Source: Chitinivibrionales bacterium | GTDB lineage: Bacteria; Fibrobacterota; Chitinivibrionia; Chitinivibrionales; WJMI01 | Length of the DNA: 64,000 nucleotides | Assembly: GCA_014728015.1 (NCBI GenBank) | Contig: WJMI01000305.1 | Span: 6,192-70,191 of the forward strand | Direction: 5' to 3' | Shown here: positions 641 through 28,198 of the stretch, piece by piece | Layout of the letters: every line of letters starts with the position of its first letter | Position numbering within the stretch: the stretch's first letter is position 1 | Notes under the pieces: model-generated | What the model was told of the DNA's origin: nothing | What the model saw: the letters and a program-made list of their open reading frames with translations, nothing else | The model's database searches: none | Translations under genes and position numbers: made by a program

Positions 641-774
641 GTTTCCCCCCTTTGGCGGTAGTTTTGGTTCTAGGCAGAAGATAGGCATAAGGGTTGCATT
701 TCTCAGATATTCATGATATCTTAGAACCGCAGAAATGCACATCTGTCAGCCCATGTGTTGAAAGGAGGCTGGTC

Positions 775-2295
775 TTGGGGCATGCCACAAATGCAGCAGA
801 GGCAGCGGAACGGCTTCGGGCGCGGCTTGGGCCGGGCAACGCGGGGCGTATTCCGACAGCTCGAGAACTCGCCAGGGAGTTCCATATTGCCGAGCGGACG
901 GCGCTGAAGGCACTCCGGCAGTTGCGCGACGAAGGCCTGCTTGAGTTTTCCCGCGGCAAGCGGCCGCGCGCGGCCGGGACACGCAGTGCGCACAAAGATA
1001 CCGCTGCCGGCCGGTTGTTCGAGGACCTGAAACAGGCCATTGTGAAAGGCGCGTACCGTGCCGGTCATATCATGCCTAAGCTTGACTACTTTGTCATCGG
1101 CGAGCATGCTTCGCGCAGCACGGTATCCGAAGCATTCAGAATGCTTGAGCGTGAAGCTCTGGCGCACAAGCGGGGGCGCCAGTGGGTGGTGGGGCCGGGA
1201 CCTGATCATAGGGCATCGCCGTTCGATGCGGCACAACCCAGAGGGGATCGGCCGGTTGTCGTGATGCTCGTTCCGGTACAGAAGGTATGGGAAGACCTGC
1301 TCAACGAGCACCTTCGGCCGTTTCTCTCCGAGTTTCTGGCGGAGCTCGGGCGCCGCCGCCTGGATTTCGTGCTGTGCCAGCGAGAGAACCCCTTGCCGCA
1401 CCGAAGCATTTTCCCGACGGGCCGGGATGAGACCGCGGCCTTGATTCGCGAGCTTGGCAGGCGGTATGCGGGAACGCTTATTGTGACCCAGCCATACAGA
1501 TTTCCCGATCTTGGGGACTGGATTGAGCAGCTTGCCGGGTTCGGACGTCCGGTGCTCTGGTTTGACTATGACGATTCCGGGCCGGCAATGGACCGCCGCG
1601 CCGTCGGCTTCGATCAGTTTTACAGGTGTTTCTGCAATGAATCCCGATGTGTGTCGCTGGCGCTTGAGTCGCTCTCCCGGTTCGGGCATGCCAGGGTGGC
1701 CGTGCCCGTATGCGAAACGCTCGCGCGCGACGAATGGTACACGCATCGGGTTGATCTTCTGCGCGAGATGAGCGGGCATCTCGAGAAGCCGGTTGACATC
1801 ATCACGGTCGATCAGGATGAGCCCGTGTGGGAGAGCATACGCACGCTTGAGGGCCACTATGTGACGTCACGGCGAATAGACGATCTGTACGTTGAGCGGC
1901 GGAAATCGAACGTAAAGCTCAGTGATGCGGCAATCGGCCGTCTCGTACGAGATGCTCTTCTCGAGGAGTTCCCTTCACTTGCATCGCTGCCAGAGCTGGA
2001 TGAGATAACCGCGGTGTTTGCCGCCAACCAGTCGCTTGCGGTCAATTATGTCATATGGTTCGATGCCGTGGGTGTCAGGATCCCGCGCGATATATCGCTT
2101 CTGGCGATAGACAATTACCTGCGCGCTGCCGTGTTTCCGGTTTCGACAATCGCGCAGAATTTCGAAGGGCTTGCCTACAGCATGTCCCACGTGTTCATCG
2201 GTGATATCCCGGTAAACGCGGACAAGCGGGGCAACATGCCGAGCGAGCCGGAATTCGTTGATCGCGGGTCGCTCGGCCGGCCGCCGCGCGGCTAG
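775..2295 (+). CDS. Transcriptional regulator, paralog 1: two tandem GntR-type winged-helix domains plus LacI/PBP1-like sensor domain
   Basis: ORF 694-2295. wHTH1: IPTARELAREFHIAERTALKALRQLRDEGLLEFSRGKRP. wHTH2: MPKLDYFVIGEHASRSTVSEAFRMLEREALAHKRGRQWVVG. C-terminal LacI-like signature: AANQSLAVNYVIWFDAVGVRIPRDISLLAIDNY. I prefer the in-frame TTG at 775, preceded by AAAGGAGG, over the TTG at 694; the start is uncertain. Confidence 0.75.
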   Translation: MGHATNAAEAAERLRARLGPGNAGRIPTARELAREFHIAERTALKALRQLRDEGLLEFSRGKRPRAAGTRSAHKDTAAGRLFEDLKQAIVKGAYRAGHIMPKLDYFVIGEHASRSTVSEAFRMLEREALAHKRGRQWVVGPGPDHRASPFDAAQPRGDRPVVVMLVPVQKVWEDLLNEHLRPFLSEFLAELGRRRLDFVLCQRENPLPHRSIFPTGRDETAALIRELGRRYAGTLIVTQPYRFPDLGDWIEQLAGFGRPVLWFDYDDSGPAMDRRAVGFDQFYRCFCNESRCVSLALESLSRFGHARVAVPVCETLARDEWYTHRVDLLREMSGHLEKPVDIITVDQDEPVWESIRTLEGHYVTSRRIDDLYVERRKSNVKLSDAAIGRLVRDALLEEFPSLASLPELDEITAVFAANQSLAVNYVIWFDAVGVRIPRDISLLAIDNYLRAAVFPVSTIAQNFEGLAYSMSHVFIGDIPVNADKRGNMPSEPEFVDRGSLGRPPRG

Positions 2296-5177
2296 GGCCA
2301 CACGATTCGCTTCACCACCTGCCGCGTGGCAGACCGTGCTCGGACCACGTAGGTGCCTGCGGCGATACCCCGGGAGTGCATATCCAGCGCCGCTGTCCCG
2401 GCACGCGGCAGGAGTTCCAAATCGAGCAACCTTTTTCCTGCAAGTGAATAGACGTTCACCCGCACGCGCCGCGTGCTGTTTGACTTCAGAACAAGCCTGC
2501 CGTTTACAACTCCTATCACGAGCCCTTCTGTGCCCGTCCGGGGGGCCGGTCCGAGCCCGTATCGGGAGGCGTTCTGGGTTTTGTCGTATCCTGCGGGCAG
2601 AGGATAGTCCAGCTCCACGCCTGTGGGATTGCCTGGCGTGGCATCGAGATCGGGCCAGACCAGCGTGCCCAGCTTCTCCTGGTCCTGTTTGTCAAAATTG
2701 TACACGCCATGTTCGTTTGCGTTGGCATCCAGCCACAGCGTGACCTTGCGCAGCTCCTCGCCGGTAAGCGTACAATCATGGTGGCTGCCGTCGACATTCT
2801 GATACAATGGGGAACAATAGGTCCCGAATTTGTAGGGCACCGTGCGCGAGCCGCCATACCAGGGGATCACGAAGTTGAACCGCTGGCTTCCGTGGTAGAA
2901 GAACAGGTACGACGACCGTTTGTCGGGCATGGTGCCGATGGGACAGGCGATTTCCTTTCCAGCCCAATATGAACTGGTGACATTTCCCCACTCTTCGTAG
3001 CCGTTGAGTGCATACCAGTAGTGGATCTCATGTCCGTTGTTGGGACCGCCGCCGGTCGAGCTGTGGCACGGATCGCATTTGGCCTCGAAAATAGGCTGGA
3101 CGGTCCGATAGAATGAGAGCGGCTCCTGGCTTCCGGGCTCCTTCTCCAGCGGTGACGGCGCTCTTCGGAAGGCCAGGGGGTTGGAGCCCATGGGCGGGGG
3201 CGCTTCCCATTTACTCTCGTGACACCCGACACAGGTCAACTGCTCGCCCGGGTGCACGTATGTAATCGATCGCATGGAGTGAATGGCAATGCCGTTTTCG
3301 TCGAGGAGTTGGAAATATATCGGCTTGCCGACGGGCGCCTCGCAGTACACGCTGCCGTCTTCCTCGACCGGTACGACGCCCATTGACATGCGGCACAAGC
3401 TTTCGTGGCCGGCGCCGGTGCGCGGGCTGTCCTTGCCGAATGTCGACTTCGCGAAGAACTGGAGAATCCGCATCCATTTCGCCCTGGCGCCTTCGGGAAG
3501 GGGCATGTCCGAGACATACACGTTCTGCACGGCAATGGTGGCGCGCTTGTGGTCGGCGTGATCGGCCCGATCGCCCTGAAACGTACGGGTGGGGATCGCG
3601 GGTGGTTTCTGGCGCGCCCGCAGCGGGATCGGATCGAGCGGTCTGGTGCCGAGCGAAATATCGATACGGACCTCGTTGCCGAACTTGTCGAGCAGTTCGA
3701 GGTCGTCGTAGTGATTGCACAGGTAGAATTCCTCGGAGAGCGGCCACAGGGTGGCCCAGCCCGGCCACCGGTCGCCGCCGAGCCATTCGGCCTCGGGGAA
3801 CCAGGCCCCGGTCATGCGCTTGACCTGCGACATGCGGTCGTCATCCTTGATTGTCACATCGATAAGTATCGGCGCGCCGTATGCCTGGCCGTGATGCGGG
3901 CCGGCGGTGGCCGTATACTTGCCGCTCGTGCCGGGTATCGCGCGGATGTTGAACTCGGCGAACGGACGCTCCTGCCTTCCGTCAATCCATATCTCGCCGT
4001 CGATATCGTTGTTGGCGGCGAACACGGTGTCGGTGGTGGTCCAGGGGTGGGGGTAGTTGCCGTGCGGCGCGCGCGGATCGCGGCCGTCGGGATAGCAGGT
4101 CCACATGTGGTGAGCAATGCAGTCTTCGCGGTCAACATAGTCCCATCGCGAATACACGATCATACCGTCATTGTCGACCGATGGGTGCCATTCGTTAGTT
4201 TCGTGGAAGCTCAAGCAGATGATATCAGAGCCGTCATCTTTCATGGAGTACAGCGAGTAGGTGGGGTACGGCTCGCTGTGGCACCGGCCGAACCCGCCGC
4301 GCCGCGTGGTATTGAACACGATGCGGCCATTGGGGAGAAAGCACGGGTCGAAGTCATCATACGGGCCGTCGGTGAGCATCATCAGATTGGATCCGTCAAT
4401 GCCGCACTTGAAGAGGTGATAACAGTCGTTTTCGTTCCACCCCGAGCCGCCGCCGCGCGCCCAGGCAAACACAATGGTCTCTCCGTCATACGAAAGATCC
4501 GGTGACAGAAATGCGCCGCCGTTGAGAGACTGGCCGGCCAGCCGTCCGTTCTGGACCGTGGCGCCTTCGAGGACATTGTCCACGCGGGGATTGTCGGCAA
4601 AAGCATTGCGAAGGATGTACAGCCCTCCGCCGCCCGTGCTCTTGTAGCCGTAATACTGCGGGCACATGTGGCCGCACTCGGTCGCGGTTGACACAAAAAG
4701 AAGATCGTCGAAATCGAGAAGCGGATTGGAAACGGCGATCCGGCGCCGCAGGGCGCAGGCCTCCGCGAACAGGTTCCGTTCGACTGCGGTGCCTGTTTTG
4801 GCGAGGCCGAGCCGGTCTCGCGCGGCGCGCAATTCGGCCAGGCGACTACGAAAGGTATCCGCCCTCTTGCGCAGGCCGTCTGTTGACTGAAGGTGTCTGA
4901 GCAGTGCATCGGTGCGCCTCAAGACGACATCAACCGGAGTTCGGTCCGTCTCATGAAGCAGGGCGTGGGGGTCGAGAATGTCCCGTTCGACTTTCCATCG
5001 ATGGGGCGACTTCCCGAGCTTGTGGAGACTTTCGAGCCGTCCGGAAAGCTCAGCATACTCGGTATCCCACCGGGCCCGCACCGACTTGCTGTAGTTGGTT
5101 GATGTGCGTGACCCGGCGAATGGCAGAGATGCGGCTATTATGGTCAGATAGAGCGATATGACAACAGCCAATCGCAT
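2292..5177 (-). CDS. HzsA-related / PD40-like beta-propeller protein with two CxxCH haem c motifs and a T9SS C-terminal domain
   Basis: 961-aa ORF with signal peptide. Propeller motifs: FLSPDLSYDGETIVF, DFDPCFLPNGRIVF, HETNEWHPSVDNDGMIVYSRWDY. Haem motifs: LTCVGCHESKWE and a PSCyt1-like VQPIFEAKCDPCHSS. Tail: VYSLAGKRLLDLEL...GIAAGTYVVRARSATRQVVKRIVWP. Paralog of 54211-56934. SD: AAAAGGGGGAATGCGC. Confidence 0.65.
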   Translation of the reverse strand: MRLAVVISLYLTIIAASLPFAGSRTSTNYSKSVRARWDTEYAELSGRLESLHKLGKSPHRWKVERDILDPHALLHETDRTPVDVVLRRTDALLRHLQSTDGLRKRADTFRSRLAELRAARDRLGLAKTGTAVERNLFAEACALRRRIAVSNPLLDFDDLLFVSTATECGHMCPQYYGYKSTGGGGLYILRNAFADNPRVDNVLEGATVQNGRLAGQSLNGGAFLSPDLSYDGETIVFAWARGGGSGWNENDCYHLFKCGIDGSNLMMLTDGPYDDFDPCFLPNGRIVFNTTRRGGFGRCHSEPYPTYSLYSMKDDGSDIICLSFHETNEWHPSVDNDGMIVYSRWDYVDREDCIAHHMWTCYPDGRDPRAPHGNYPHPWTTTDTVFAANNDIDGEIWIDGRQERPFAEFNIRAIPGTSGKYTATAGPHHGQAYGAPILIDVTIKDDDRMSQVKRMTGAWFPEAEWLGGDRWPGWATLWPLSEEFYLCNHYDDLELLDKFGNEVRIDISLGTRPLDPIPLRARQKPPAIPTRTFQGDRADHADHKRATIAVQNVYVSDMPLPEGARAKWMRILQFFAKSTFGKDSPRTGAGHESLCRMSMGVVPVEEDGSVYCEAPVGKPIYFQLLDENGIAIHSMRSITYVHPGEQLTCVGCHESKWEAPPPMGSNPLAFRRAPSPLEKEPGSQEPLSFYRTVQPIFEAKCDPCHSSTGGGPNNGHEIHYWYALNGYEEWGNVTSSYWAGKEIACPIGTMPDKRSSYLFFYHGSQRFNFVIPWYGGSRTVPYKFGTYCSPLYQNVDGSHHDCTLTGEELRKVTLWLDANANEHGVYNFDKQDQEKLGTLVWPDLDATPGNPTGVELDYPLPAGYDKTQNASRYGLGPAPRTGTEGLVIGVVNGRLVLKSNSTRRVRVNVYSLAGKRLLDLELLPRAGTAALDMHSRGIAAGTYVVRARSATRQVVKRIVWP

Positions 5178-5268: not shown

Positions 5269-5355
5269 CATAGGCTGGTGAAGCGCCCCTTGTTCAGAGC
5301 GGAAAACGGCGTTCACTGGACAGAGAGGACAGTACTGGTGCCAGAAGTCAGAGAC

Positions 5356-5411
5356 CAGAGGCCAGAGATCTGTCCTTTCGAATAGTCGCGCTCTTTGACC
5401 TCTGGCCTCTG
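5356..5411 (-). terminator. Terminator-like hairpin after the 5423-7711 gene (no clear U-tract)
   Basis: CAGAGGCCAGAGATC (5356-5370) pairs with GACCTCTGGCCTCTG (5397-5411): a 15-bp stem with one mismatch and a 26-nt loop. It starts 12 nt past the stop at 5423 in minus-strand reading. Confidence 0.35.
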
Positions 5412-5422
5412 AGCTCCGCCTT

Positions 5423-7711
5423 CTACCGGCAGATCATTACACGCCGGCAAACGGTATATGCACCTGCGGCGACTGACACCAGGTAGTACCCGGTAGGCAC
5501 CATGGTACGATTCACGAGGTACCGCCGGGAGCCGCTCCCGCGGACACGGTGCACAAGCCGTCCATTCAGGGAGAACAGGTCGACCCGGTGTGCCCCTTCG
5601 GCAGCTACGTTGACCAGCGCGCGTCCGGCCACTGCGCTCACGTGAAGCGGCATGGCGGTTCGCAGAAGGACCGGTGACAGGGCCACGGCATTGCCGCTCG
5701 AAGGACCTTCGTAGAATTCTATTTCGGCGACATTGAGATAGCCGCACTCGCCGCCGGCATTGCTGTTGTACCGGACATAGGCGGCTTCAAGCGGATCGTC
5801 GATGGTAACCGTGGTCATCTCGCCGTCGGCAGGCACGGATTCGATCGTATAGATGCTGGTCCAGTCGGTGCCGTTGGCCGAGACCTCGAATGTCCTTCCG
5901 ACCATGCGCTCACCGAAGCCGTCGCGTGGGCAGAACGAGATTTCAACAATGGTCTTGGGCTGGTCGAACCGGAACCCCGCCCAGAGCTCGTCGGCTTCAT
6001 GGCAATCGGGGTAGGTGGTGATGTCGCCGTCGAATGCGGCCCAGGGTCCTTCGCAGAAGTCGAGCGGTTCGCCTTCGGAGATAAAATGGCCGGTAGCCTT
6101 GCGCTTTGCTACAATCTCAATCTGCGTGGATGCGCTTTTGGCCGTGCCGTCCATACTGGCATCCGCGGTGACCGTAACCGTTCCCTCGGTGTTTCCCGCG
6201 GTAAACATTCCGTCGTTATCCACTTCGCCGTCAGCGCCGGTTGCCGACCAGGTGAACGCGGGCTGCGTTGGCATGGCAAGGAAATACTGGTCGCGCGCCG
6301 TTGCCCACAACTGAAGTGTCTCGCCGTAAAGGAGCGTGCGGCCGGCCGGAGTGACAGTCATCGAGGTAAACACCGGGGGCTCGGGGTCGCCGGTTTCCCA
6401 GCTTGACGATATAGAACCGGAGTGCGTGCTGTTGAGCTCCACGTTGAAATCGCTCTGGATGCTTGCCAGGCCGGTGCGACTGTTGGGACCCCAGGTAACC
6501 GTGGGCTCGCTGCCCTCCCAGGTGTTATAGTCCCAATCGAAGCTTCGCGTGCTTGCCATGCTGGTTGTCCAGGTCTCGGCTCCCAGGGACGTTCGAATCT
6601 CGCCATTCTGGTAGACGTTATGCTTCAGTGTCAGGTTCTCGATATCGCTGTTGAGCGCGGGTTCGCCGTCACGGACAGGCGCCTCGCGCTCCATGTCCCG
6701 AAGCTCGAACGATCCGTTGATCAGCGTATGCATAATAGTGACATTCTTGCTTTCGCACACCGCAATCTCGGAGCCGTCATTGTCGTGGGAGTAACAGTAT
6801 TCGAGTGTCAGCGGGCCGGTGGGATTGACTTCCCAGAACACCCCTGAGCCTTCCCAGTTGTAGGCCATGCCCTTGTTGTTGCGAAACTCGCTGTTGCGTA
6901 CGACCACGTTGCGGTTGTCCCAGTCGAACCACAGGCCGGGCCCGTGGTTGTCGTAGGCCTGGTGGTTTTCTATGAGGAGCGGGCCTTCATAGTTATTGCA
7001 CCATTTGCCGCCGCCGCCGGAGAACCCGCCCGGTACGTGGTATTTTCCGCCGATATTGTGGAAAGAGCCTTCCTTTTCCGGAAAGGGATTGTAGTCCCAG
7101 CCGCAGTTGTTGTTGCGGGAGATACAGTTCCGCACGACCACATCGCGGCATTTTCCGCCACCGATACCGCCGGCGAAGTTGTACTCGGTGATAACATCTT
7201 CGACAAGGCAATGATCGACGTCCTCGAGCACAATGCCGTCCCAGTGCGATTCCTTGGTGAGGATATTGCGCACGGTCCACCCGCGGCTTCCGCCGGCAAT
7301 GCGTACTTGCGAGTTGTTGAAAAAGCACGCGCCGCGGCGAAATGTCATGTCTTCGAGGGTAACATAGCTTGCGCCCCATGATGCGAACAGGTGACGCATG
7401 GTGGTATCGAATTCGCCGTCGATAATGACCCCGGCGCGGCTTTCGCCCTTGATCACGATCGGATTGTCGGCAGTACCCGAATTGGCCGACCAGAAGATAA
7501 TGGTCTGGTTGTAGGTGCCGGTACGAACCGTGATGACATCCCCGGGCTTGGCCAGGTCCACCGCTTTCTGGATGGTAGCGAATGGCGCGCCGGAGCTGCC
7601 GTCGTTGGTGTCGTCGCCGGATGTTGCTATGAAATAGTCGGCCGCGAATGTGCCGGCAGCGAGAAATACGCATGCCAGCGCGGCATGGATAGTTGCGCGA
7701 AGCGTTCTCAT
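5423..7711 (-). CDS. Secreted beta-helix protein type 1 with Big_2, F5/8 type C (discoidin) and T9SS C-terminal domains
   Basis: 762 aa. Signal peptide, then ADYFIATSGDDTNDGSSGAPFATIQKAVDLAKPGDVITVRTGTYNQ and beta-helix repeats (NCISRNNNCGW, HQAYDNHGPGLWFDWDN). Big_2-like: VTPAGRTLLYGETLQLWATARDQ... Discoidin-like: AAFDGDITTY...VSANGTDWTSIY...AEIEFY. Tail: LFSLNGRLVHRV...TGYYLVSVAAGAYTVCRRVMICR. Confidence 0.75.
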   Translation of the reverse strand: MRTLRATIHAALACVFLAAGTFAADYFIATSGDDTNDGSSGAPFATIQKAVDLAKPGDVITVRTGTYNQTIIFWSANSGTADNPIVIKGESRAGVIIDGEFDTTMRHLFASWGASYVTLEDMTFRRGACFFNNSQVRIAGGSRGWTVRNILTKESHWDGIVLEDVDHCLVEDVITEYNFAGGIGGGKCRDVVVRNCISRNNNCGWDYNPFPEKEGSFHNIGGKYHVPGGFSGGGGKWCNNYEGPLLIENHQAYDNHGPGLWFDWDNRNVVVRNSEFRNNKGMAYNWEGSGVFWEVNPTGPLTLEYCYSHDNDGSEIAVCESKNVTIMHTLINGSFELRDMEREAPVRDGEPALNSDIENLTLKHNVYQNGEIRTSLGAETWTTSMASTRSFDWDYNTWEGSEPTVTWGPNSRTGLASIQSDFNVELNSTHSGSISSSWETGDPEPPVFTSMTVTPAGRTLLYGETLQLWATARDQYFLAMPTQPAFTWSATGADGEVDNDGMFTAGNTEGTVTVTADASMDGTAKSASTQIEIVAKRKATGHFISEGEPLDFCEGPWAAFDGDITTYPDCHEADELWAGFRFDQPKTIVEISFCPRDGFGERMVGRTFEVSANGTDWTSIYTIESVPADGEMTTVTIDDPLEAAYVRYNSNAGGECGYLNVAEIEFYEGPSSGNAVALSPVLLRTAMPLHVSAVAGRALVNVAAEGAHRVDLFSLNGRLVHRVRGSGSRRYLVNRTMVPTGYYLVSVAAGAYTVCRRVMICR

Positions 7712-8084: not shown

Positions 8085-9335
8085 TCAGTGAATGGTCCCC
8101 ACGGCTCTGGCGGCCAAATTCTCCTCCGCTCGATAGCGATATATGTGAACTGCGCTCGGCATGCGGGTGCCGGGATGTAAGGAGTAGAAACAGGCTCTAT
8201 CGGTCCCACGTGTTATCAGCCTTCCTGTCGCGTCGAACACTCCAAAGGAGCCGTTCGGCCCAAGGGGAAGCCGGTGCTGTGCTTGTGATGCTGCTACTGG
8301 AGTTTTGTACGGTTCTCCCTCTCCTGGGGGCTGCGTCAGAAGGCCATCCAGGATGTCCTTCATTTCGCTGGTCGATTTGAGCTGTTTCAAATACGCATGT
8401 TGTTTGTCGGGCGAAGCCTGCCATGCGTTGGAGCCGTCTGCGGCAATCTCGTTGCACCCGTTCGTTTCCGCAGCCCAGTAGTCGGCAAGGCCCCGCACGG
8501 CATACAATACGGCGGTCAGATCCCAGCTTTCCCGGTTTTTGCCCTCACCGCACAGGTAGATATCATACGCCCTGCGTATCGGATTGTCATACGGTGTTTC
8601 TTCTGCCAGGGTCGAACCAGTCAGGATAGCGCTGCCGATTTCGTACCCGGAAAAGGTGACCGGTCGGGGCCAATTATCAACAGCGAACTTGGTGGCCGGC
8701 CCCATATTCAATGCCCAGAAGTTCCACTCACGGCCCTCGGGATAGGCACCTCCCATGCACGACCATGCCTTGACTTTCTTTGCAACAAGGTCCCTGCCGC
8801 ACAGATCGCTGTATTCGTCGGGTGGCGACTGCAGAAGGTGGGCAATGTTTATCAGGTAACCGACCGTGACAATGGTGACGCTGGTGTCGGGTCGTGACGC
8901 AAGTATCTGACGGTATAGGTTTGTCGACAACGGCAATTCATCGCTGGTAGCCACGTCGTGGGGATAGTTGTCCGCGAGATACTCGGCATACGAGCCGCAG
9001 GCCATGACCTTCTGTGACTTGGGAAGCGAAAACGTCCGGTCCTCAAAGATGTCGCGATGAGCCACGCCAATGGGAAGGTCGGGACGGCTGTAAAACGTGT
9101 TTACCACGTCCACCGCTGGCCCGCTCAGATAGTCGGGCACGCTTAACATCACTGCAAGGATATTGCATTCGCCGTTGTCCGCGAGGGCATGAAGCACTGC
9201 AAGTGCACCGCAGTCGTCCACGTCGCCGCCAAAGTCCGTATCGAGAATGATATTCGGCACTGCGCAGGCGGCAAATGCCAAAACCACGATCAGCCTTGCT
9301 GTGTTGAGAATAGTCGCAACGAGTCCACAGTTCAT
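8085..9335 (-). CDS. Secreted inosine-uridine nucleoside hydrolase (IUNH)-fold protein with T9SS-like tail
   Basis: N-terminal Asp cluster ILDTDFGGDVDDCGALAVLHALADNGECNILAVM (the D.D...DD Ca-binding signature of the IUNH fold) follows a signal peptide, MNCGLVATILNTARLIVVLAFAACA. Start moved to the ATG at 9335, preceded by AGGAAGGGGGGATCCT. Paralog of 31014-32210. Confidence 0.7.
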   Translation of the reverse strand: MNCGLVATILNTARLIVVLAFAACAVPNIILDTDFGGDVDDCGALAVLHALADNGECNILAVMLSVPDYLSGPAVDVVNTFYSRPDLPIGVAHRDIFEDRTFSLPKSQKVMACGSYAEYLADNYPHDVATSDELPLSTNLYRQILASRPDTSVTIVTVGYLINIAHLLQSPPDEYSDLCGRDLVAKKVKAWSCMGGAYPEGREWNFWALNMGPATKFAVDNWPRPVTFSGYEIGSAILTGSTLAEETPYDNPIRRAYDIYLCGEGKNRESWDLTAVLYAVRGLADYWAAETNGCNEIAADGSNAWQASPDKQHAYLKQLKSTSEMKDILDGLLTQPPGEGEPYKTPVAASQAQHRLPLGPNGSFGVFDATGRLITRGTDRACFYSLHPGTRMPSAVHIYRYRAEENLAARAVGTIH

Positions 9336-9469
9336 AGGATCCCCCCTTCCTGTTGGTCTGCTGTTGCCGGGAAGTGTACCCCAAATCGTCTGTCCAGACA
9401 ACCTACCGAGCGGACCATGTTGTTGCACTTTTCGGACAATCTGCCGCAAGAATGGGTATATTAGTTTGC

Positions 9470-10642: not shown

Positions 10643-12193
10643 CTACTTCTTCAGGACCTTTCCGTTGAGCAGGCGCTGAACGGTGCCGTCGGTGTAGCGG
10701 ATGATGACCACGCCCGCAGGCATTGCTTTCAGTGAGCCTGTCGTGATGGCGCTCTTGGCAAGCGCCGCGCCCTTGACCGAGTAGACCGCTTCGATCTGGT
10801 TTGCCCGCGGGCGGATGCTGTAGCGTACCGGGCGCCGCGCGTTATCCACCGCGCCGCCGCTTTCCACCACGCTGAATGTGCGCGATGCTTCGCCGCCGTT
10901 GCCGTTGAGAAAGATCGTTATGAGCATGGGGCCGGTGATATTGTCCGGCACGGTGAAATCGACTTCGGCGCCCGAGCCGATACCGACCACGCCTTCGCCG
11001 TCGGAGTCGGCATCATAGCTCCACATCAGGTTGTCGCCGGTCCCGGCAAGCGTCACTGTAGTGCCCATCTCCAGCGTGCTGCCTTCGCCGGGCGACACGA
11101 ACACGGTGGGCGTGAGGTCGCCGCCGCCTTCACACTGCGCATCGGTGGGCGAGACCGCGAGATCGGGGTCGTCTTCGCGATTGGCGAACAGAGGAAGCCC
11201 TTTTTTGTAAAGCACAAGCTTGTCTATTGCGAAATCAAACGAGCGGGGCTGGATTTTTATCGTATGCACGCCTGCGCTCAGGTCGAACTCGCCCGTGCAC
11301 CAGCAGCCTTCCATGGTGCTCTCCCAGTTCCATGCATTTGTCAAATGGGAGAAGGTTTTTTCGAAATGATGCCCGGCGACCGATACCCAGTGGTCGTTAT
11401 GCTGGGTATGGTCGTCCCAGTCGTGATAGTTGCGGTATCTGAACACAAAGGTGCCGGGGTTGCAGACATATACATTGTATACGAGTTCGTTTGAGCCGGG
11501 AGGCGAGCCGAAAAAGTCGGCGCCAAGCCACCGCAGGTACCCGTCGCCGGAATATCCCGCCCAGTTCGTTTCCAACGCCCAGTCGCCGGAGTACTCGGCG
11601 CTTTCGCATTCCACCACGATCATGCCGTCTTTCTCGTAGTAGAGGTCGCCAGCCGCCGGCGGCGGTGGTGGCGGGGGCGGCGGCGTGACACTACCGCCGG
11701 TGGACACGAACTTGATATAGCTGAACCGGCTGTATTGACCGTGACTGGCGCCGCAGGGATAGACCGAGCGCGCCCAGTAGGTAATCTTGTCGCCGTTGTT
11801 TATCGTGTGATTGCCGAGGTCGAGCTCTTCGAGCCGGTATGTGCTTCCGCTGCAGTTGAGGTTGCCGTCGGCGTACGGGAAATTCCCCGTGGCCACGATA
11901 GCGCCGGCGATTGACAGTTCGTACGGCGAGTTGCCATCGGATTCCAGCACGGCGCCGAGAAGGACATTATAGGTGCCGTCATCGCCGGGAAACGCATCCC
12001 ACCACACATCGCCGTCAAGCGACGACCCGGTACCGTCGATACCAAGGCAGCTGATACCGTTGATCGAGCGGTCCTTCCACACACCGTCCTTGCCGCTGCA
12101 TTCCAGGGCATTGAGCTGGACTTCGGCGGCGAATGCGGACACTGCCATGGCGAGAACGGTCATGGCCGTTGTGACTCTGAGAGTCGTACGCAT
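10643..12193 (-). CDS. Secreted two-module carbohydrate-binding-like protein with poly-Pro linker and T9SS-like tail (paralog A)
   Basis: 516 aa with signal peptide. Module 1: GIDGTGSSLDGDVWWDAFPGDDGTYNV...SVYPCGASHGQYSRFSYIKF. PPPPPPPPP linker. Module 2: ECESAEYSGDWALETNWAGYSGDGYLRWLG...HTIKIQPRSFDFAIDKLVLYK. No catalytic motif recognised. SD: ACAGGAGGGGGGCTCTC. Confidence 0.55.
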   Translation of the reverse strand: MRTTLRVTTAMTVLAMAVSAFAAEVQLNALECSGKDGVWKDRSINGISCLGIDGTGSSLDGDVWWDAFPGDDGTYNVLLGAVLESDGNSPYELSIAGAIVATGNFPYADGNLNCSGSTYRLEELDLGNHTINNGDKITYWARSVYPCGASHGQYSRFSYIKFVSTGGSVTPPPPPPPPPAAGDLYYEKDGMIVVECESAEYSGDWALETNWAGYSGDGYLRWLGADFFGSPPGSNELVYNVYVCNPGTFVFRYRNYHDWDDHTQHNDHWVSVAGHHFEKTFSHLTNAWNWESTMEGCWCTGEFDLSAGVHTIKIQPRSFDFAIDKLVLYKKGLPLFANREDDPDLAVSPTDAQCEGGGDLTPTVFVSPGEGSTLEMGTTVTLAGTGDNLMWSYDADSDGEGVVGIGSGAEVDFTVPDNITGPMLITIFLNGNGGEASRTFSVVESGGAVDNARRPVRYSIRPRANQIEAVYSVKGAALAKSAITTGSLKAMPAGVVIIRYTDGTVQRLLNGKVLKK

Positions 12194-12836: not shown

Positions 12837-14132
12837 TTACCGCTTCACGACCTTCCCGTTGACCATCCGGGAAACGCTGCCGTCGGTGTAGCGGACCACC
12901 ACGACTCCGGCCGGCAGGGCCTTCACCGCGGCGCCTGCGATCATGTTTTTATCGAGTCGTCTGCCGTCTATGGTGTAGGCGGCTTCGACCGCGGCCCTGG
13001 CGCGCGGCTTGTACCGCACCGCGGCGGACTTGTGCGCAATCACGGACCCGTCGCACGTGTTGGCGGTCGGCGTGACCGCGTGATCAGGATCGCTCTCGTT
13101 GGTGTCGAAGCCCTGCTCAGACCAGGCCTTGTACACGATGAACTTGTCGATACAGAAATCGCTGGAGCGCGGCTGGATCTTCACGGTGTGCTCGCCTTCG
13201 TCGAGATTGAAATCGCCCGAGCACCAGCACGGGTCGAAGATCGTGTACCACGACCACTGGTTCTTGATATGTGACATGGTCTTGCGGAACGAATAATCGT
13301 CGATAGACACGAAGTAGTCGTTGTTCTCCTCGTGGTTGTCGTGGATCAGGTGGTTGCGGTACTTGAACCAGTACTGCCCGGCCTCACAGATGTAAATCTT
13401 GTAGGTGAGCTGCTTGTCGGCGCCCGGAGGCGAGCCGAATGACTGCGGGCCCCGCCAGACATAGTACCCGTCGCCGGAATAGCCCGCGTATTCTGTTTCC
13501 AGGTGCCAGTCGCTGTGCGGGATCGGGCAGCTTTCGATTTCAACCACGATTTTTTCACCGATCGCATCAGGATAGTAGACCTCATCACCGGTCACTACCT
13601 GTTCATCGCCCGGGTTCGGGGTAACTTCATCGGTGGTAGGCTCGAACCTGATGCCGGTGAACCGCGCATACTGACCATGATCGCTTCCGCACGGATACAC
13701 CGACTGCGCCCACATGCGTATCTCATCGCCCTGGCTGATTTCTTTCACGCCGCAATCGAGATCTGATTCCTCGTAGGCGGTCGCGCCGCAGTCTTTGTCG
13801 CCGCCGCCGTAAAAGGGATAACTGCTCGAAGCCACCAGGGTGCCGCCGACAAAGATTTTGTATGGCGAGTTGCCGTCCGTCTCAAGGATGGCCTGCAGAT
13901 AGATGCGGTAGCGGCCGGTTTCGCCGGGAAACGAATTCCACCAGATGTCGCCATCAATGGAGCTTCCCGTGCCGTTCAGGCCCATACATGTGTATGGAGT
14001 ACCGCCCGACCGGTCTGTCCACTCACTGTCTTTGCCGTCGAAATCCATCGCACCCAGAGTAACCTGGGCTGAGGCCGCCGTGCCGAGACACAGGATAAGC
14101 GCGGCCGCGGTCAGTTTGATTGTGTTACTCAT
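12837..14132 (-). CDS. Secreted two-module carbohydrate-binding-like protein with T9SS-like tail (paralog B)
   Basis: Start moved to the ATG at 14132 (MSNTIKLTAAALILCLGTAASAQV), preceded by GGAAAAGGGGGGTCTC. Collinear with 10643-12193; by eye roughly half of the residues are identical. Confidence 0.55.
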   Translation of the reverse strand: MSNTIKLTAAALILCLGTAASAQVTLGAMDFDGKDSEWTDRSGGTPYTCMGLNGTGSSIDGDIWWNSFPGETGRYRIYLQAILETDGNSPYKIFVGGTLVASSSYPFYGGGDKDCGATAYEESDLDCGVKEISQGDEIRMWAQSVYPCGSDHGQYARFTGIRFEPTTDEVTPNPGDEQVVTGDEVYYPDAIGEKIVVEIESCPIPHSDWHLETEYAGYSGDGYYVWRGPQSFGSPPGADKQLTYKIYICEAGQYWFKYRNHLIHDNHEENNDYFVSIDDYSFRKTMSHIKNQWSWYTIFDPCWCSGDFNLDEGEHTVKIQPRSSDFCIDKFIVYKAWSEQGFDTNESDPDHAVTPTANTCDGSVIAHKSAAVRYKPRARAAVEAAYTIDGRRLDKNMIAGAAVKALPAGVVVVRYTDGSVSRMVNGKVVKR

Positions 14133-14193
14133 GAGACCCCCCTTTTCCTTTGAGCTTGCAAGGGTTGCACCCTCTCGCCAAAACATGGATGAA

Positions 14194-14203
14194 AATATAG
14201 GGG
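14194..14203 (-). promoter_or_regulatory. CCCCTATATT promoter-like motif upstream of 12837-14132
   Basis: Exact 10-mer on the minus strand, 61 nt upstream of the ATG at 14132. Confidence 0.4.
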
Positions 14204-14594
14204 TGATTTTGGCTCGAATAGATAGACTTTGCCTGGCCCTAAGCGTTCCTGTTAGGCCAGAATGGACAGGGAGTAACCATGCATGGTTTTCTGGCAGGCG
14301 CATCAAAGGTCCCGAAAACGCCATCCAAGTGGACATCAGACCGTTCTTCATATATACTATGGTAGGAACTGCTTCATACCGGACAGAGAGGACAGGGCTA
14401 TAAGAAGGAAAGGATCATCGGGGCGAACCCAGCCTGACCTGGCGCTTTGGCAGCCAGCCGGTCCGCATGTTGGTGGGTTTCGGCGAGGCAAGCTGTTCTC
14501 CCAAGTGCACCGTAGCTGACAGGTGAAGGCGGCTGATTTCCGGACTCTGATCTCTGACCTGTGACTTCTGATCTCTGCCAATAGGGAGATTTTC

Positions 14595-16073
14595 TTGAGC
14601 AGGCATGATTTCCGCACGTGGTTGACGGACTACCTGGACAAACTGGAACCGGGCAGATGGCTGCCCCCGGATGCAGAGCTTGGCAGGAAATGGGACCTCT
14701 CAGCCAGGACGGTGCGCCGCGTGATGGCACAGATGGCCAGAGAGGGCCTGGTCGAGCGGGTCCAGGGCAAAGGCACGAGAAAGCCCGGGGCCGGAGAGAA
14801 TCGAGAGCTTGAAACATTCGAAGAATCCCGGTCGTCATCCCAGCGACTGGCCGAGGCGCTGACCGAGTCGATTTCCAGCGGCCAGATTCGCCGGGGGGAT
14901 GCGCTCCCGCAGCTCAAATATATCTGCCTTCGGTACCACGTGTCCGATAAGACGGTCATTGCCGCATACGAACTTCTGCAGAAAAAAGGGCTGGTGAAAA
15001 AGATCGGGCGCTACTATCGCGTGGGCGGGTTCGAGCCGCTGGAGCGCCGCCCGATTACTCGCGCGGCGTATCTTGTGACCGGCAGCCAGGACGAGTTGTC
15101 ACTCGTTTTCGCCGGCGACCAGCTCGCCCAGGCATATATCAAGCTTGATCGCGAGCTTCGTTCCTGCGGCATACTTCTTACCTGCATGGACACGGCGGAA
15201 TTCCTCGAAGCCCAGCGCCAGTGGGCGGGCGCCGATTCGTATCCGGCGGGCGTATACCTGTGGCGGGTTGACGGCCGCGATTTTGACGAGCGCGTGAAAC
15301 TGGTCTCACCGCTCTTGAGACGGACGCGTCGCCAGCGGATTCCGGTTGTCGTGGATCTGGGTTCGCACGACGGGGTCGGCGAGGTTCCCAAGGGGCTGAT
15401 GATTGTCTCGCGCGGGAACCTCAGCACGACCCTTTCGCGGACCATCGCGGAATTTCTCACGTCGCGCATACGGCGCCGGATCGTGCTTGTCCTCGATGCG
15501 AAAAGCATTATTGCGGATGCGCGCCAGGGATTGCTCAAGTACCAGAAAACCGTGTATGAGGTCCTGCAGCACGCGGCCGAAAAAGTTGCCATACACCAGG
15601 CAGTGCTCAGCGGCGATAGTGCGCTCTCTGTCGAGTCAATTGTCGAGCGTGCCTCCGAGAAAGAGGCCGGCTACATCAAGTACCTGCACGAGAAATACGA
15701 AAGCGTGGTCCGGGCGCAGAGCCGCGACGTGTTCACCGGCCTTTCGGTATACAATGATTTCGCGGATGTGATTCGCGCATTCGGGAAGAATACCTTGTGG
15801 TTGTGTCCTTCAGACGTGCAGGCCAGAAGCGCGCTGGATGCATTGAAGCGCGCGGGGATCAGGGTGCCGGATGACATCGCCTTGATGACCCTTCAGAGCG
15901 TTCCCGAGTATTACCACCTGGGCGTATCATCGTGCACGCCCGACTACGAGCTGGTTGGGTATATCATGGCCCACGCGATAATCGGCGATATTCCCCTGAA
16001 AAAGTCCCACCACGGGTATCTGCGGATACCGTGTCCGGTTGTGGAACGGGCGACCACGCCGCGGGTGCGGTAG
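14595..16073 (+). CDS. Transcriptional regulator, paralog 2: tandem GntR-type wHTH x2 plus LacI/PBP1-like sensor
   Basis: wHTH1: LPPDAELGRKWDLSARTVRRVMAQMAREGLVERVQGKG. wHTH2: LPQLKYICLRYHVSDKTVIAAYELLQKKGLVKKIGRYYRVGG. C-terminus: CPSDVQARSALDALKRAGIRVPDDIALMTLQS. TTG start preceded by AGGGAGA. Confidence 0.75.
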   Translation: MSRHDFRTWLTDYLDKLEPGRWLPPDAELGRKWDLSARTVRRVMAQMAREGLVERVQGKGTRKPGAGENRELETFEESRSSSQRLAEALTESISSGQIRRGDALPQLKYICLRYHVSDKTVIAAYELLQKKGLVKKIGRYYRVGGFEPLERRPITRAAYLVTGSQDELSLVFAGDQLAQAYIKLDRELRSCGILLTCMDTAEFLEAQRQWAGADSYPAGVYLWRVDGRDFDERVKLVSPLLRRTRRQRIPVVVDLGSHDGVGEVPKGLMIVSRGNLSTTLSRTIAEFLTSRIRRRIVLVLDAKSIIADARQGLLKYQKTVYEVLQHAAEKVAIHQAVLSGDSALSVESIVERASEKEAGYIKYLHEKYESVVRAQSRDVFTGLSVYNDFADVIRAFGKNTLWLCPSDVQARSALDALKRAGIRVPDDIALMTLQSVPEYYHLGVSSCTPDYELVGYIMAHAIIGDIPLKKSHHGYLRIPCPVVERATTPRVR

Positions 16074-18345: not shown

Positions 18346-18744
18346 TATTACCCCGCGGATGCACGCACCACATGCGGAACACGTCCATAGACACGATTCA
18401 TGTGTTATGAGCCCATGATGCTGGGGATCGGGAGAGAACCCGGATCTACATATTGTACCCAAACTGGCGCCAAAGTTCAACAAATTTTTAGTATCACGGT
18501 ATTCAGGATTGCACAGACCGGCATTTTCCCCGGTCCATGCCGGCAGCGAGGAAATTGCGGCCATGTGTCTCTCTTCAAGCAGGCACGACACTATATATGG
18601 GGGGGGCATTGCACTGTAACAGTATAACACAGTAGTACCATATTGTCCTGGAACCTGTTCCCGGCTCTGTCTATTATTGAGGATACTGTGCGGGAAGAAG
18701 AGGGGATGATTAACCCTTATTCAGAGAAAGAGGGAGACGGCGTC

Positions 18745-20640: not shown

Positions 20641-20669
20641 TACGCTCAATGCAAGGAGGCCGGGCGAAC

Positions 20670-22103
20670 ATGCTTAGGCGAACAGCCTGTATTATGATCA
20701 TTATTGCCGGAGCGGCCGGGATGTCGCGCGCGGAGTGCCCGTCGTACGTCAAGAAAGATCAGTCCTCGGTCGGTGAACAGTCGAGCGTGCCTGAGGGGTG
20801 GTTCGCCTATGTTGGGCGCACCGCGGACAACCGCATTCCGGGCGTCGTGATTTCCCCTACCACGACGTATTCGCCGGTCACAGTACCGAACACCGAGGCG
20901 GATACGTGTCTCATGGTCCAGATGACCGACGATGCCTCCTGGCTTCTGTACATGACCACCAGTCAGGAGGTGTTTCTCATTCGCCCTGATGGTTCGTCGA
21001 AGACGGCGGTTCCCACGCCCAACTGCGAGGTGTCGCAGAACAACCAGTTCCCGCGCACCGCGGGCGTGTACCGCAACGCGCCGGGCGGGGATGCAATCGT
21101 GTACACTTCGGCCTATGATAAAATGCGCGCGATGGACGTAGACCTGTCTGGCGAAACACCGTCGTTCGGGAGCGATCGCAGTCTCATCGATTTGGGCGGA
21201 TCTGGAATCCGTTTCGGTGAAATGGCCATGGAGGGGCGGATCCGGTCGATCAACGGGAACCACTATCTGGGGCAGCGTGTTGACGAGAGCGGGTGGTTGT
21301 TGTCAACGCTGTTCATCACTATCCCGGATGGCGGCGCGGGGACCGCCGGTACCGGGGACATATGGTGGTACACCAATCTCACCTGGAAAACATTCGGATG
21401 CGGATACACGCTTTCGCCTGACGGTTCCATTGCGCTATTCAACACGGGCGACCAGGGCAACGATGCCGAGTGCCACCCGTCACACGCATCGGGAATGGAC
21501 CACAAGGGATTTCTCGTGGCGGAGTTCCCGGAGCCGGGCACCGCGCAGTGCGGGGCGCACGAATTCGTGACCGAGCATGCCATAAGCATCAACTGGGCTC
21601 CGGAGCAATACCGTTTCGGGGCATACTACGAAGTCGACTTCACCGACTGGTCATATGCGAATACCGGCAACTATATCATCGGCGTACTCCGGGGGAGCCT
21701 GGCGCCCGATCCGGGCGTGTGGCTCGTGAACTGGGGCACCAACGAGTGGACGCACTTGACCGACGGCAGCACTTATGCCGGCAGTCCCGATGTGTTTTTC
21801 GGCGAGAGCCCGGTGGGTCTCACGAACCGGATGCCGACCGTGCGGCCGCAGCATGCACAGAGCAGGCTGGCCGGGACCCCGCATATCCGCGAGGCCGGCC
21901 GGCTGGTTGTGCCGATTGCATCGGCGGGAATCTATACCGCGGCATTGACCGATCCGGGCGGCAGGACCGTGCATGTGTCCACTTTCCGGTGCGCGGGCCC
22001 GACCGAGAAGGTCCTTTTTCTCTCGGATTATGCAGCCGGAGTATACCTGCTTCGTTTGTCGGACAACAGTGCCACCTCTGTGGAGCGGGTTTTCGTTCGG
22101 TAG
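20670..22103 (+). CDS. Secreted TolB/PD40-like beta-propeller protein with T9SS C-terminal domain (propeller family P, copy 1)
   Basis: FLIRPDGSSKTAV, YTLSPDGSIALFNTGDQ. Tail: ALTDPGGRTVHVSTF...AAGVYLLRLSDNSATSVERVFVR. Start at the ATG at 20670, after AAGGAGG. Confidence 0.5.
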   Translation: MLRRTACIMIIIAGAAGMSRAECPSYVKKDQSSVGEQSSVPEGWFAYVGRTADNRIPGVVISPTTTYSPVTVPNTEADTCLMVQMTDDASWLLYMTTSQEVFLIRPDGSSKTAVPTPNCEVSQNNQFPRTAGVYRNAPGGDAIVYTSAYDKMRAMDVDLSGETPSFGSDRSLIDLGGSGIRFGEMAMEGRIRSINGNHYLGQRVDESGWLLSTLFITIPDGGAGTAGTGDIWWYTNLTWKTFGCGYTLSPDGSIALFNTGDQGNDAECHPSHASGMDHKGFLVAEFPEPGTAQCGAHEFVTEHAISINWAPEQYRFGAYYEVDFTDWSYANTGNYIIGVLRGSLAPDPGVWLVNWGTNEWTHLTDGSTYAGSPDVFFGESPVGLTNRMPTVRPQHAQSRLAGTPHIREAGRLVVPIASAGIYTAALTDPGGRTVHVSTFRCAGPTEKVLFLSDYAAGVYLLRLSDNSATSVERVFVR

Positions 22104-28134: not shown

Positions 28135-28198
28135 CAAAACGATCGCACAACCCCGCAGGGGCACGACGTCGTCATGCCCCGACGGGGAATCCGCAACG

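Follow-up and report, generated by a model that had tools for sequence, protein, structure and literature searches.

A secreted, probably dihaem relative of hydrazine synthase subunit alpha from a Chitinivibrionales bacterium and its plausible role in glycan processing

The closest described relative of the protein considered here is subunit alpha of the anammox hydrazine synthase (HZS) of Kuenenia stuttgartiensis (HzsA; kuste2861, chain A of PDB entry 5c2v), in which haem alpha-I has Tyr591 as its proximal ligand and the histidine of the CxxCH motif binds zinc together with Cys303. The protein itself, hereafter the target, comprises 961 amino acids (aa) and is encoded at 2292..5177 on the minus strand of a 64,000-nucleotide stretch of a Chitinivibrionales (Fibrobacterota) genome assembly (GCA_014728015.1, contig WJMI01000305.1); this whole stretch is referred to as the window. 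Judged from its sequence and predicted fold, the target is a whole-length but very distant HzsA homologue that carries two haem sites and belongs to a non-anammox HZS-alpha branch. It is probably a real, secreted, and haem-loaded redox enzyme, for which a glycan-processing role is plausible.

Non-anammox homologues of HZS alpha and of HZS beta-gamma have been assigned to clades I-IV and occur in Planctomycetota, Desulfobacterota, and Acidobacteriota (Hagglund et al. 2025, PMC12758564). In the parts of that paper drawn on here, more than 600 "HZS_alpha domain-containing" structural hits are reported, none with an experimentally confirmed function other than HZS. These homologues keep the haem alpha-I motif, lack key HZS catalytic residues including the tyrosine, do not conserve Cys303, and are predicted to ligate haem through His in a canonical pocket (PMC12758564). 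In Planctomycetota and Desulfobacterota, some alpha and beta-gamma homologues are co-located; the clusters described include FG-GAP/CRTAC1 and ABC substrate-binding genes, and the beta-gamma proteins carry 4-8 extra haems (PMC12758564). The same parts of the text hold nothing on export by the type IX secretion system (T9SS), fusion to carbohydrate-binding modules (CBMs), carbohydrate-active enzyme (CAZyme) neighbourhoods, or Fibrobacterota, and polysaccharide is mentioned once, in the introduction, with regard to co-cultured bacteria.

In our literature searches on the family, neither export by the T9SS nor fusion to CBMs came up, nor did any association with CAZymes or the Fibrobacterota operon described below. 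A first, sequence-only reading of this DNA had held that no redox step on glycans was described for the family, and literature searches on HZS_alpha/PF18582 indeed found none. The family itself is recognised; what appears to be new, as far as we found, is the secreted variant, its recurrent link to glycan genes, and a paralogue in an operon that includes a porin and ResB/CcsA.

Architecture of the target and its relation to HzsA

The open reading frame (ORF) of the target starts with ATG, has its stop codon at 2292..2294, and is preceded by a purine-rich stretch (AAAAAGGGGG) approximately 8 nt 5' of the start codon. Re-translation recovered the 961-aa product with both haem motifs and the propeller motif quoted in the sequence-only reading in their places. 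A structural model was built with AlphaFold2 (AF2) on 72 homologues, with a mean predicted local distance difference test (pLDDT) of 84.1 and a predicted template modelling score (pTM) of 0.83. The model shows, in order, a signal peptide, a helical domain, a propeller, a beta middle domain ending at the first CxxCH motif, a helical domain with the second CxxCH motif, an insertion, and a C-terminal beta-sandwich. All coordinates of target features given below are on the minus strand.

The predicted Sec-type signal peptide (aa 1-23, MRLAVVISLYLTIIAASLPFAGS; 5109..5177) has a hydrophobic core together with one basic residue and a c-region of small residues, and its cleavage site is putative; in the model, residues 2-17 form a helix followed by a disordered stretch. 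The N-terminal helical domain (aa 31-150; 4728..5087) consists of helices at 31-53, 58-66, 81-97, 103-122, and 130-149, mostly with pLDDT >85; D78, P81, D83, R87, and R88 in this domain are nearly invariant in an alignment of 72 sequences, to which the conservation of single residues refers throughout. It is followed by a TolB/PD40-like beta-propeller of approximately six blades (aa ~155-520; 3618..4715), which is supported by the AF2 strands and by Foldseek matches to six-bladed TolB propellers at E ~1e-10. The propeller had been predicted from the sequence alone as PD40-like, and these matches agree with that prediction, though PD40 itself was borderline in the Pfam scan. The conserved propeller motif HETNEWHPSVDNDGMIVYSRWDY (aa 325-347; 4137..4205) corresponds to the family consensus YHETNEWHPSVDNxGxIVYTRWDY. 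Family-invariant propeller residues comprise R285, R292, R298, E326, E329, R344, D346, D349, R350, W359, D364, R369, N374, Y375, H428, H429, D445, and Q451, with C299, H300, H325, H356, H357, C361, and H372 nearly invariant. In total, about 60 columns, rich in Arg, Asp, Glu, and His, are invariant and concentrate in the propeller, so the protein is more readily understood as an enzyme than as a scaffold.

The HZS_alpha "middle" beta-domain (aa ~545-657; 3207..3545) is the region recognised by Pfam, with a PF18582 match at aa 593-654 of 71.3 bits (E 1e-19; gathering score 26.6), and it aligns with HzsA chain residues 499-564. M635, H642, and E645 in this domain are invariant, and it ends at haem site 1 (CVGCH, aa 649-653; 3219..3233). 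The helical, cytochrome-c-like C-terminal domain (aa ~665-850; 2628..3185) contains haem site 2 (CDPCH, aa 701-705, within VQPIFEAKCDPCHSS; 3063..3077). Within it, Pfam reports a weak Cytochrome_CBB3 match at aa 691-713 (E 0.02), and the same region of homologues exceeds the gathering scores of PccH and Cytochrom_C. The second motif had earlier been described as PSCyt1-like; the motif resemblance stands, and is equally true of HzsA haem alpha-II, but PSCyt1 (PF07635) gave no match to the target at E<=0.1 in the Pfam scan. Just past haem site 2, the target has a 37-residue insertion of its own (aa 719-755; 2913..3023), with pLDDT <50 and columns that are gapped in 71 of the 72 sequences. Moreover, the consensus Met714 is Asn in the target, and H716 and H719 are unique to it. 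Because of these three peculiarities, haem 2 of the target may be ligated differently from that of its relatives. The last segment is a predicted C-terminal sorting domain of the T9SS type A-like kind (aa 873-961; 2295..2561).

HzsA (5c2v_A) was the top PDB match of the model in Foldseek (E 4.4e-26, 838 columns, TM 0.59 target-normalised, 16-17% identity), and a PDB sequence search with the target found only this chain. The likeness extends from the propeller through the middle domain to the C-terminal haem domain. As HzsA ranks first over 838 columns and TolB proteins come next, the target is best regarded as a whole-length, distant HzsA homologue. CVGCH of the target is aligned on CSGCH of HzsA (haem alpha-I) and CDPCH on CAMCH (haem alpha-II), and W657 takes the position of the HzsA haem ligand Tyr591, in agreement with the family consensus CHExKW. 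Since the tyrosine ligand is replaced by tryptophan, canonical His ligation of haem 1 is to be expected.

The sequence-only reading had proposed a relative of HzsA outside any anammox context, and this view holds: PF18582 is above its gathering score and the fold matches, while the NCBIfam hydrazine_alpha equivalog model NF052339 reaches 46.5 bits, where the cutoff is 800, and covers only aa 588-657. The target has no beta or gamma gene next to it; a beta-gamma-like gene occurs 53 kb away, adjoining a paralogue. A true hydrazine synthase is ruled out by this score, the missing tyrosine ligand, the host, and the gene context. What a genuine HZS alpha subunit with cryptic anammox-type chemistry has in its favour is confined to the shared fold and haem motif positions, to be set against the identity of 16-17%, the absence of key residues from non-anammox homologues reported in PMC12758564, and predicted export by the T9SS from a Chitinivibrionales cell rather than residence in an anammoxosome; its probability is next to nil.

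Haem sites and export

Both CxxCH motifs, about 51 residues apart, are present in 119 of the 120 best homologues (40-49% identity). In the alignment, C649, G651, C652, H653, and the following E654 are invariant (72/72), and haem site 2 (C701, C704, H705) is kept in 70 sequences. Exactly two CxxCH motifs were found in 78 of 86 full-length ORFs from homologues at 80 genome loci spanning many phyla, and in 113 of 121 full-length representatives of 50%-identity clusters, whereas by our own estimate from rough residue frequencies approximately 0.01 C..CH motifs per protein of this size are expected by chance. This pattern indicates that both haem motifs are under strong purifying selection. Conservation of the motifs in orthologues was one of the points on which the sequence-only reading had staked its claim in advance, and it was borne out.

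Features typical of c-type cytochromes coincide in the target and the window, namely the conserved CxxCH motifs, the signal peptide, and genes for haem attachment. The latter are a ResB-like protein of system II cytochrome c maturation (62627..63739, plus strand; Pfam ResB E 4e-11) and the start of a CcsA gene (63900..64000, plus strand), which runs off the window end and is 48% identical to the N-terminus of a Cytochrom_C_asm protein in the homologue locus L083. The target is very probably a haem-loaded redox protein. A glycan-binding or hydrolytic propeller without redox function, such as a lectin, an adhesin, or a hydrolase in which the haems persist as structural relics, would accord with the frequent use of TolB/PD40-type propellers as binding scaffolds, with secretion alongside adhesin-like Ig and CBM proteins, and with the paralogue without haem site 2. 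It fits poorly with the invariance of haem motif 1 and its glutamate across phyla, with motif 2 in at least 90% of members, and with dedicated ResB/CcsA genes that travel with the paralogue-type operon, and we consider it very improbable.

The claim that the target is a T9SS cargo is well supported as a prediction. The C-terminal 85 residues of 19 other window proteins, the target excluded, were made into a hidden Markov model, and this window tail profile matches target aa 873-961 at E 6e-10; in the AF2 model, aa 873-949 form a beta-sandwich. The curated model TIGR04183 (Por_Secre_tail) stays below its cutoff (see below), and PF18962 was not reported for the target in the Pfam scan, although many of its homologues carry PF18962. 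Two of the 19 profile tails pass the TIGR04183 cutoff. Since most window tails score below curated T9SS cutoffs, the C-terminal domain of this lineage appears to be a divergent variant. Planctomycetota homologues end at query residue ~845-860, before the sorting tail, and have no surface-export signal, which suggests that a conserved core acquired the tail as an export signal in particular lineages. T9SS machinery genes were not seen in the 64-kb window, the part of the genome covered here.

Twenty window proteins, the target included, share this C-terminal sorting-domain profile of ~80 residues; tail-bearing examples start at 5423, 18643, 20649, 22309, 24810, 28046, 32414, 42353, 45738, 50148, 51782, and 57263.

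Linkage to glycan-degrading genes and proposed function

In a profile search of 1.84 billion cluster representatives (50% identity), the family comprised 2,228 clusters at E<=1e-30. Genome loci with family members belong to Fibrobacterota, Planctomycetota, Hydrogenedentota, Kiritimatiellia, Lentisphaerae, Verrucomicrobiota, Armatimonadota, Bacteroidota, Sumerlaeota, and others, many of which are glycan degraders. The family is linked to glycans first of all by domain fusions above Pfam gathering scores: CBM_4_9 in P0020 (63 bits), NPCBM/NEW2 in P0108, P0121, and P0219 (up to 160 bits), and Laminin_G_3 in P0105, P0112, P0123, P0128, and P0181. All of these fused members retain both haem motifs; the target itself has no CBM.

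A second link is gene neighbourhood. Nine homologue loci with precomputed annotation were surveyed, and seven of them have at least one glycoside hydrolase (GH), polysaccharide lyase (PL), or carbohydrate esterase (CE) gene within 8-10 kb. The CAZyme-type neighbours comprise GH30, GH43, SASA esterases, a Pel9A-like/GH141_M beta-helix protein, and PL11 in L083; GH30, GH44, a weakly matching Pel9A-like/GH141_M beta-helix protein, and a PETase-like esterase in L084; GH43 and a Pel9A-like/GH141_M beta-helix protein in L085; GH30 at the P0044 locus; GH30 with CBM6 in L087; GH28, a RicinB lectin, and DUF4450 in L088; and a weak DUF5060 match with a faint cellulase-like one in L082. The remaining two hold a Laminin_G_3/DUF2341 protein without GH, PL, or CE (L086) or no CAZyme-type neighbour (L001). 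Furthermore, a beta-helix gene lies immediately upstream of the HZS_alpha gene on the same strand in L002, L004, L009, L013, L083, and L085, which represent at least two phyla. The two genes are 54-68 bp apart in L002, L004, and L009 (Armatimonadota) and their ORFs overlap in L013, and a GH141_M/Pel9A-like match is on record for four of these six upstream beta-helix loci. Fusions to CBM, NPCBM, and Laminin_G_3 modules together with CAZyme neighbours are the kind of linkage looked for in an auxiliary activity. With the module fusions, the CAZymes at seven of nine loci, and the six upstream beta-helix genes, the link to glycans is stronger than could be known from the window alone; for the family it is circumstantial but recurrent.

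The target itself follows this arrangement. Directly upstream of it, on the same strand and separated by a 245-bp gap, is the gene of a secreted beta-helix protein (5423..7711, minus strand) with a DUF1565/Chondroitinase_B/Pel9A-like N-terminus, Big_2, F5/8 type C, and a sorting tail. Its convergent neighbour on the other side is a hybrid regulator with a GntR helix-turn-helix (HTH) domain and Peripla_BP_3 (694..2295, plus strand; Pfam), whose stop codon overlaps that of the target, and HZS_alpha genes in L082 and L003 also have a regulator of this type at their side. The sequence-only reading had placed the target in a CAZyme locus, beside beta-helix and GH enzymes. The label is fair for the window, with its beta-helix, MGH1/GH63-like, and GH115_C-like genes, and a beta-helix gene does adjoin the target, but a classical GH gene does not, the GH63-like genes being at least 20 kb away.

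We favour the reading, with a rough probability of 0.5, that the target is a secreted dihaem c-type redox enzyme acting on plant-type glycan groups beside glycan-degrading enzymes; the odds are likewise even for a role of the target in glycan processing as such. Such an activity suggests a redox step in plant-glycan breakdown that has not been described. In the mechanism that we propose, Sec would carry the target across the inner membrane, system II (ResB/CcsA) would attach the two haems covalently in the periplasm, and type IX secretion, directed by the sorting domain, would take it over the outer membrane, as the tail suggests, leaving it to work at or beyond the cell surface. Haem 1 (C649/C652/H653) would sit at the junction of propeller and middle domain, like HzsA haem alpha-I, presumably with His rather than Tyr/Zn ligation, and would form the reactive centre in a pocket that the invariant propeller residues (Arg, Asp, Glu, His, and Cys) would line. 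The cytochrome-c-like domain would hold haem 2 (C701/C704/H705), which would exchange electrons with a partner or with a soluble oxidant or reductant; H2O2, O2, and other acceptors are candidates for the oxidant. The most likely substrate would be a group on, or released from, hemicellulose or pectin, and the target would serve as a redox auxiliary activity alongside beta-helix and GH/PL/CE enzymes under sugar-responsive GntR/Peripla_BP_3-type regulators.

Several observations weigh against this reading. The genes next to the target encode the beta-helix/F5-8C protein, a nucleoside-hydrolase-like protein, and regulators, and none belongs to a classical GH family. Its tail scores only 18.1 bits (E 0.002) with TIGR04183, whose cutoff is 23. 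M635 and H642 are invariant and might serve as distal ligands, in which case haem 1 would be six-coordinate and an electron carrier rather than a catalytic site, and haem 2 is apparently dispensable in at least one setting, because the paralogue has lost site 2. Relatives of the organism are fermentative anaerobes, for which the oxidant or reductant of a surface haem enzyme is a difficulty. At the level of the family, the close homologue P0002 sits among housekeeping genes, neighbourhoods are poorly conserved across the 80 genome loci, those of Planctomycetota included, and the sulfatase and Gfo/Idh/MocA genes present in these loci are not clearly above what CAZyme-rich genomes contain. Finally, no functional study of HZS_alpha/PF18582, of cytochrome c in polysaccharide utilisation loci, or of Chitinivibrionia cytochromes was found in the literature. 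As a further caution on chemistry, the conserved His and Cys residues of the target could also bind metal.

More tentatively, the whole family may represent a widespread, new c-haem class of bacterial redox auxiliary-activity enzymes that modify plant or algal glycans oxidatively or reductively. Members would be secreted by the T9SS in Fibrobacterota and periplasmic in tail-less phyla such as Planctomycetota, and might, for example, remove a blocking substituent or cleave a recalcitrant linkage. Their partners in Fibrobacterota would be a periplasmic CCP/MauG-like beta-gamma protein, a dedicated porin, and a dedicated haem-attachment system. Separately, a Gfo/Idh/MocA gene directly adjoins the HZS-alpha-like gene in L012, L025, L032, L036, and L061 (Hydrogenedentota, Planctomycetota, Bacteroidota), and a representative of this oxidoreductase from another locus, L051, has a twin-arginine (Tat) signal; the oxidoreductase is a possible redox partner.

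The paralogue operon and the remainder of the window

The paralogue (54175..56934, plus strand; Pfam HZS_alpha, 100% identical to GF418_13485 of a Chitinivibrionales MAG, on an 81-kb contig) is 46% identical to the target, lies 49 kb from it, and heads a conserved operon, which thereby has a complete HZS-like set of alpha and beta-gamma. Its T9SS tail scores 27.1 bits with TIGR04183, above the cutoff. It keeps haem site 1 and has lost site 2, which reads SKLSGTF (aa ~715-722) and is followed by a deletion; the operon-type homologues P0009, P0020, and P0028 keep both haem motifs. The best hits of the target itself are only 46-49% identical, and for this reason the target is taken to be a divergent paralogue.

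The operon continues on the plus strand with a 264-aa protein with a T9SS tail (57263..58057; TIGR04183 29.3 bits, above the cutoff), which is syntenic in L002, L083, and L085. Next comes an HZS beta-gamma-like protein of 631 aa (58054..59949), in which a beta-propeller is joined to a dihaem domain like those of cytochrome c peroxidase (CCP) and MauG (Pfam CCP_MauG; CxxCH motifs at aa 438 and 547). It carries a signal peptide, lacks a sorting tail, matches the NCBIfam models hydrazine_BC (E 8e-35), hydrazine_beta (E 1e-26), and hydrazine_gamma (E 1.5e-15) at scores far below the equivalog cutoffs, and gives weak matches to MauG, MbnH, and RoxB models. It is followed by a 449-aa, 16-stranded, porin-like outer-membrane beta-barrel (59959..61308; GF418_13500; AF2 pLDDT 88.7) without a Pfam match, which Foldseek relates to OmpM1/OmpF at E 8e-14 to 1e-9; its family has 168 members, and all those with a named organism come from Fibrobacterota. 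The set is completed by a cytoplasmic protein with FkbO/Hyg5-like and RidA (L-PSP) domain matches (61355..62536), after which the ResB and CcsA genes begin.

The same gene order recurs in L002, L083, and L085. In L084 the gene set is the same but rearranged, and the small T9SS protein is replaced by one with CBM_4_9. In L083, L084, and L085, the operon is again followed by ResB and CcsA. Where the upstream region is annotated, a Pel9A-like/GH141_M beta-helix gene lies directly upstream of the operon (L083, L085) or nearby (L084), and around the operons in L083-L085 lie genes for GH30, GH43, GH44, SASA esterases, and PL11, with CBMs and T9SS tails on the encoded proteins. Because only the alpha-like and the small protein are tailed, the alpha-like and beta-gamma proteins would stand on opposite sides of the outer membrane with the porin between them. 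The operon may form a small-molecule route, with a surface step, a porin, a periplasmic step, and a cytoplasmic step.

This operon bears on two other explanations of the target. In the first, the target would belong, as a subunit or spare alpha, to an HZS-like complex of alpha and beta-gamma for detoxification or nitrogen scavenging (of H2O2, NO, hydroxylamine, or an imine), with CAZyme neighbours that merely mirror CAZyme-rich genomes. The beta-gamma homologue in the window, with its hydrazine_BC match and CCP/MauG-like dihaem domain, speaks for it, as does the outside-to-cytoplasm arrangement of paralogue, porin, and RidA/FkbO-like protein; enzymes of the CCP type also reduce peroxide. Co-location of alpha and beta-gamma genes in Planctomycetota and Desulfobacterota, as reported in PMC12758564, points the same way. 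Yet fusions to CBM, NPCBM, and Laminin_G modules are hard to fit to a small-molecule detoxifier, and sorting tails on the alpha-like and none on the beta-gamma proteins would separate the presumed subunits by the outer membrane. Moreover, beta-gamma genes occur in only 4 of ~78 genome loci, and the target adjoins, and is perhaps regulated by, sugar-type regulators. On balance, such a complex is unlikely, though it is the strongest of the alternatives.

The second is a cell-surface cytochrome for extracellular electron transfer, in which the target would give a fermenting cell an electron sink (Fe(III), humics, or O2) and the propeller would dock or adhere. The predicted export of a c-type cytochrome to the surface agrees with it, and the porin and periplasmic dihaem protein of the operon superficially resemble a porin-cytochrome conduit. 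MtrA and MtrC have about ten haems each, and MtrB about 26 strands. An MtrCAB-like conduit through the operon barrel was considered and rejected, as each protein here has two haems and AF2 and Foldseek give the barrel a 16-strand, general-porin fold; OmpF/OmpM-like barrels of this kind are much smaller than those that enclose cytochromes in the known conduits. The strongly conserved polar residues of the propeller argue for a specific active site, the CBM fusions are foreign to an electron conduit, and the Planctomycetota members lack any signal for surface export. Electron transfer of this sort is thus a distinctly less probable function than membership in an HZS-like complex, and we retain the glycan-directed redox enzyme as the preferred reading.

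A related arrangement is seen in L088 (3488..10349), where GH28 is followed first by ORFs of a fragmented propeller, a RicinB lectin, and CCP_MauG/cytochrome c, next by HZS_alpha, and last by DUF4450; its beta-gamma-like gene appears to be split or interrupted by lectin domains.

As for transcription of the target, an inverted repeat (CAGAGGCCAGAGGTC ... GATCTCTGGCCTCTGG) without a T-run lies at ~5330..5420, just past the stop codon of the beta-helix gene, and may be a terminator or a regulatory hairpin. With such a repeat behind the beta-helix gene, the target may be transcribed from a promoter of its own; a promoter/terminator scan around the target gave nothing decisive. A search for conserved partners particular to the target yielded none: no orthologue of the beta-helix neighbour was detectable beside other family members, where the tails alone match.

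The window as a whole is densely packed with genes for secreted proteins that bear tails. It holds five beta-helix proteins (at 5423, 28046, 45738, and 50148 among others; one with F5/8C) and three MGH1/GH63-like hydrolases (26071, 32414, and 43562), the second of which (32414..34774) has a PA14 domain. A three-gene cassette is duplicated on the plus strand (24810..30943 and 42353..48386; 38-50% protein identity) and encodes, in order, a ~400-aa tail-bearing protein, an MGH1/GH63-like hydrolase, and a ~900-aa beta-helix protein. Two secreted proteins resembling inosine-uridine nucleoside hydrolases (8085..9449, minus strand, and 31014..32210, plus strand) are 43% identical, and both match the window tail profile; their fold is unusual among secreted glycan-active proteins. 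Tail-bearing secreted proteins of 480-665 aa without a Pfam match are encoded at 18643..20640, 20649..22103, 22309..24162, and 36801..38471 (plus strand), those at 18643 and 22309 being paralogues with 46% identity. Another secreted paralogous pair, at 10643..12193 and 12837..14351 (minus strand), is also 46% identical and gives weak GH115_C/Golvesin_C-like matches, and the protein at 10643..12193 has a poly-proline linker. Besides two AraC regulators, four paralogous regulators combine a GntR-HTH with a LacI-type Peripla_BP_3 domain: 694..2295 and 14595..16073 on the plus strand, and 40588..42159 and 48502..50061 on the minus strand.

Significance and comparison with known systems

To our knowledge, the redox helpers known for polysaccharide breakdown all use copper, flavin, pyrroloquinoline quinone (PQQ), or non-covalent haem, and come mostly from aerobes. 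If the glycan-directed reading is true, this family of at least 2,228 clusters, with its covalent c-type haem, its fusions to CBMs, and its presence at loci for hemicellulose and pectin in anaerobic degraders, would give carbohydrate-active enzymology and biomass conversion a new class of enzymes, and would be a haem-c counterpart to the copper lytic polysaccharide monooxygenases in largely anaerobic degraders. The anammox hydrazine synthase would then have its ancestry in glycan-processing enzymes. The family in any case bears on the origin of that enzyme and offers a tractable non-anammox system, and even if the glycan link fails, it is among the larger uncharacterised groups of secreted cytochromes.

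Among known systems, HzsA shares with the target the propeller, the middle CxxCH domain, and the helical CxxCH domain. The target differs from it by an extra N-terminal helical domain, the T9SS tail, and Trp in place of Tyr591, at an identity of 16-17%; it also has no adjacent beta or gamma genes, and its host is a polysaccharide degrader of the Fibrobacterota, with a CAZyme rather than an anammox context. The non-anammox homologues treated in PMC12758564 belong to the same superfamily, and the paralogue in the window likewise lies beside a fused beta-gamma (CCP/MauG-like) gene. The clusters described there differ from the Fibrobacterota operon, in which the alpha is T9SS-tailed and is joined by a small T9SS protein, a porin, FkbO/RidA, and ResB/CcsA.

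Two further groups of enzymes are comparable in design. The first is the CCP/MauG/RoxA type, with two covalent c-type haems, one reactive and one serving as a relay, as is proposed for the target; a polymer is attacked by one of them, the secreted haem-c rubber oxygenase RoxA. Unlike these enzymes, the target has no CCP_MauG fold and no detected sequence relationship, and its haems would be held in HZS-type domains on a propeller. The AA12 PQQ-dependent pyranose dehydrogenases follow, by analogy, the same design logic of a six-bladed propeller with a cytochrome relay and CBMs. In the members of the present family that were scanned, PQQ/GSDH-type signals were limited to a single PQQ_2 match below threshold, which lies in the N-terminal extension of P0170. 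The target thus differs from AA12 in having a TolB/PD40-like propeller and c-type haems, one of which is the presumed reactive centre.

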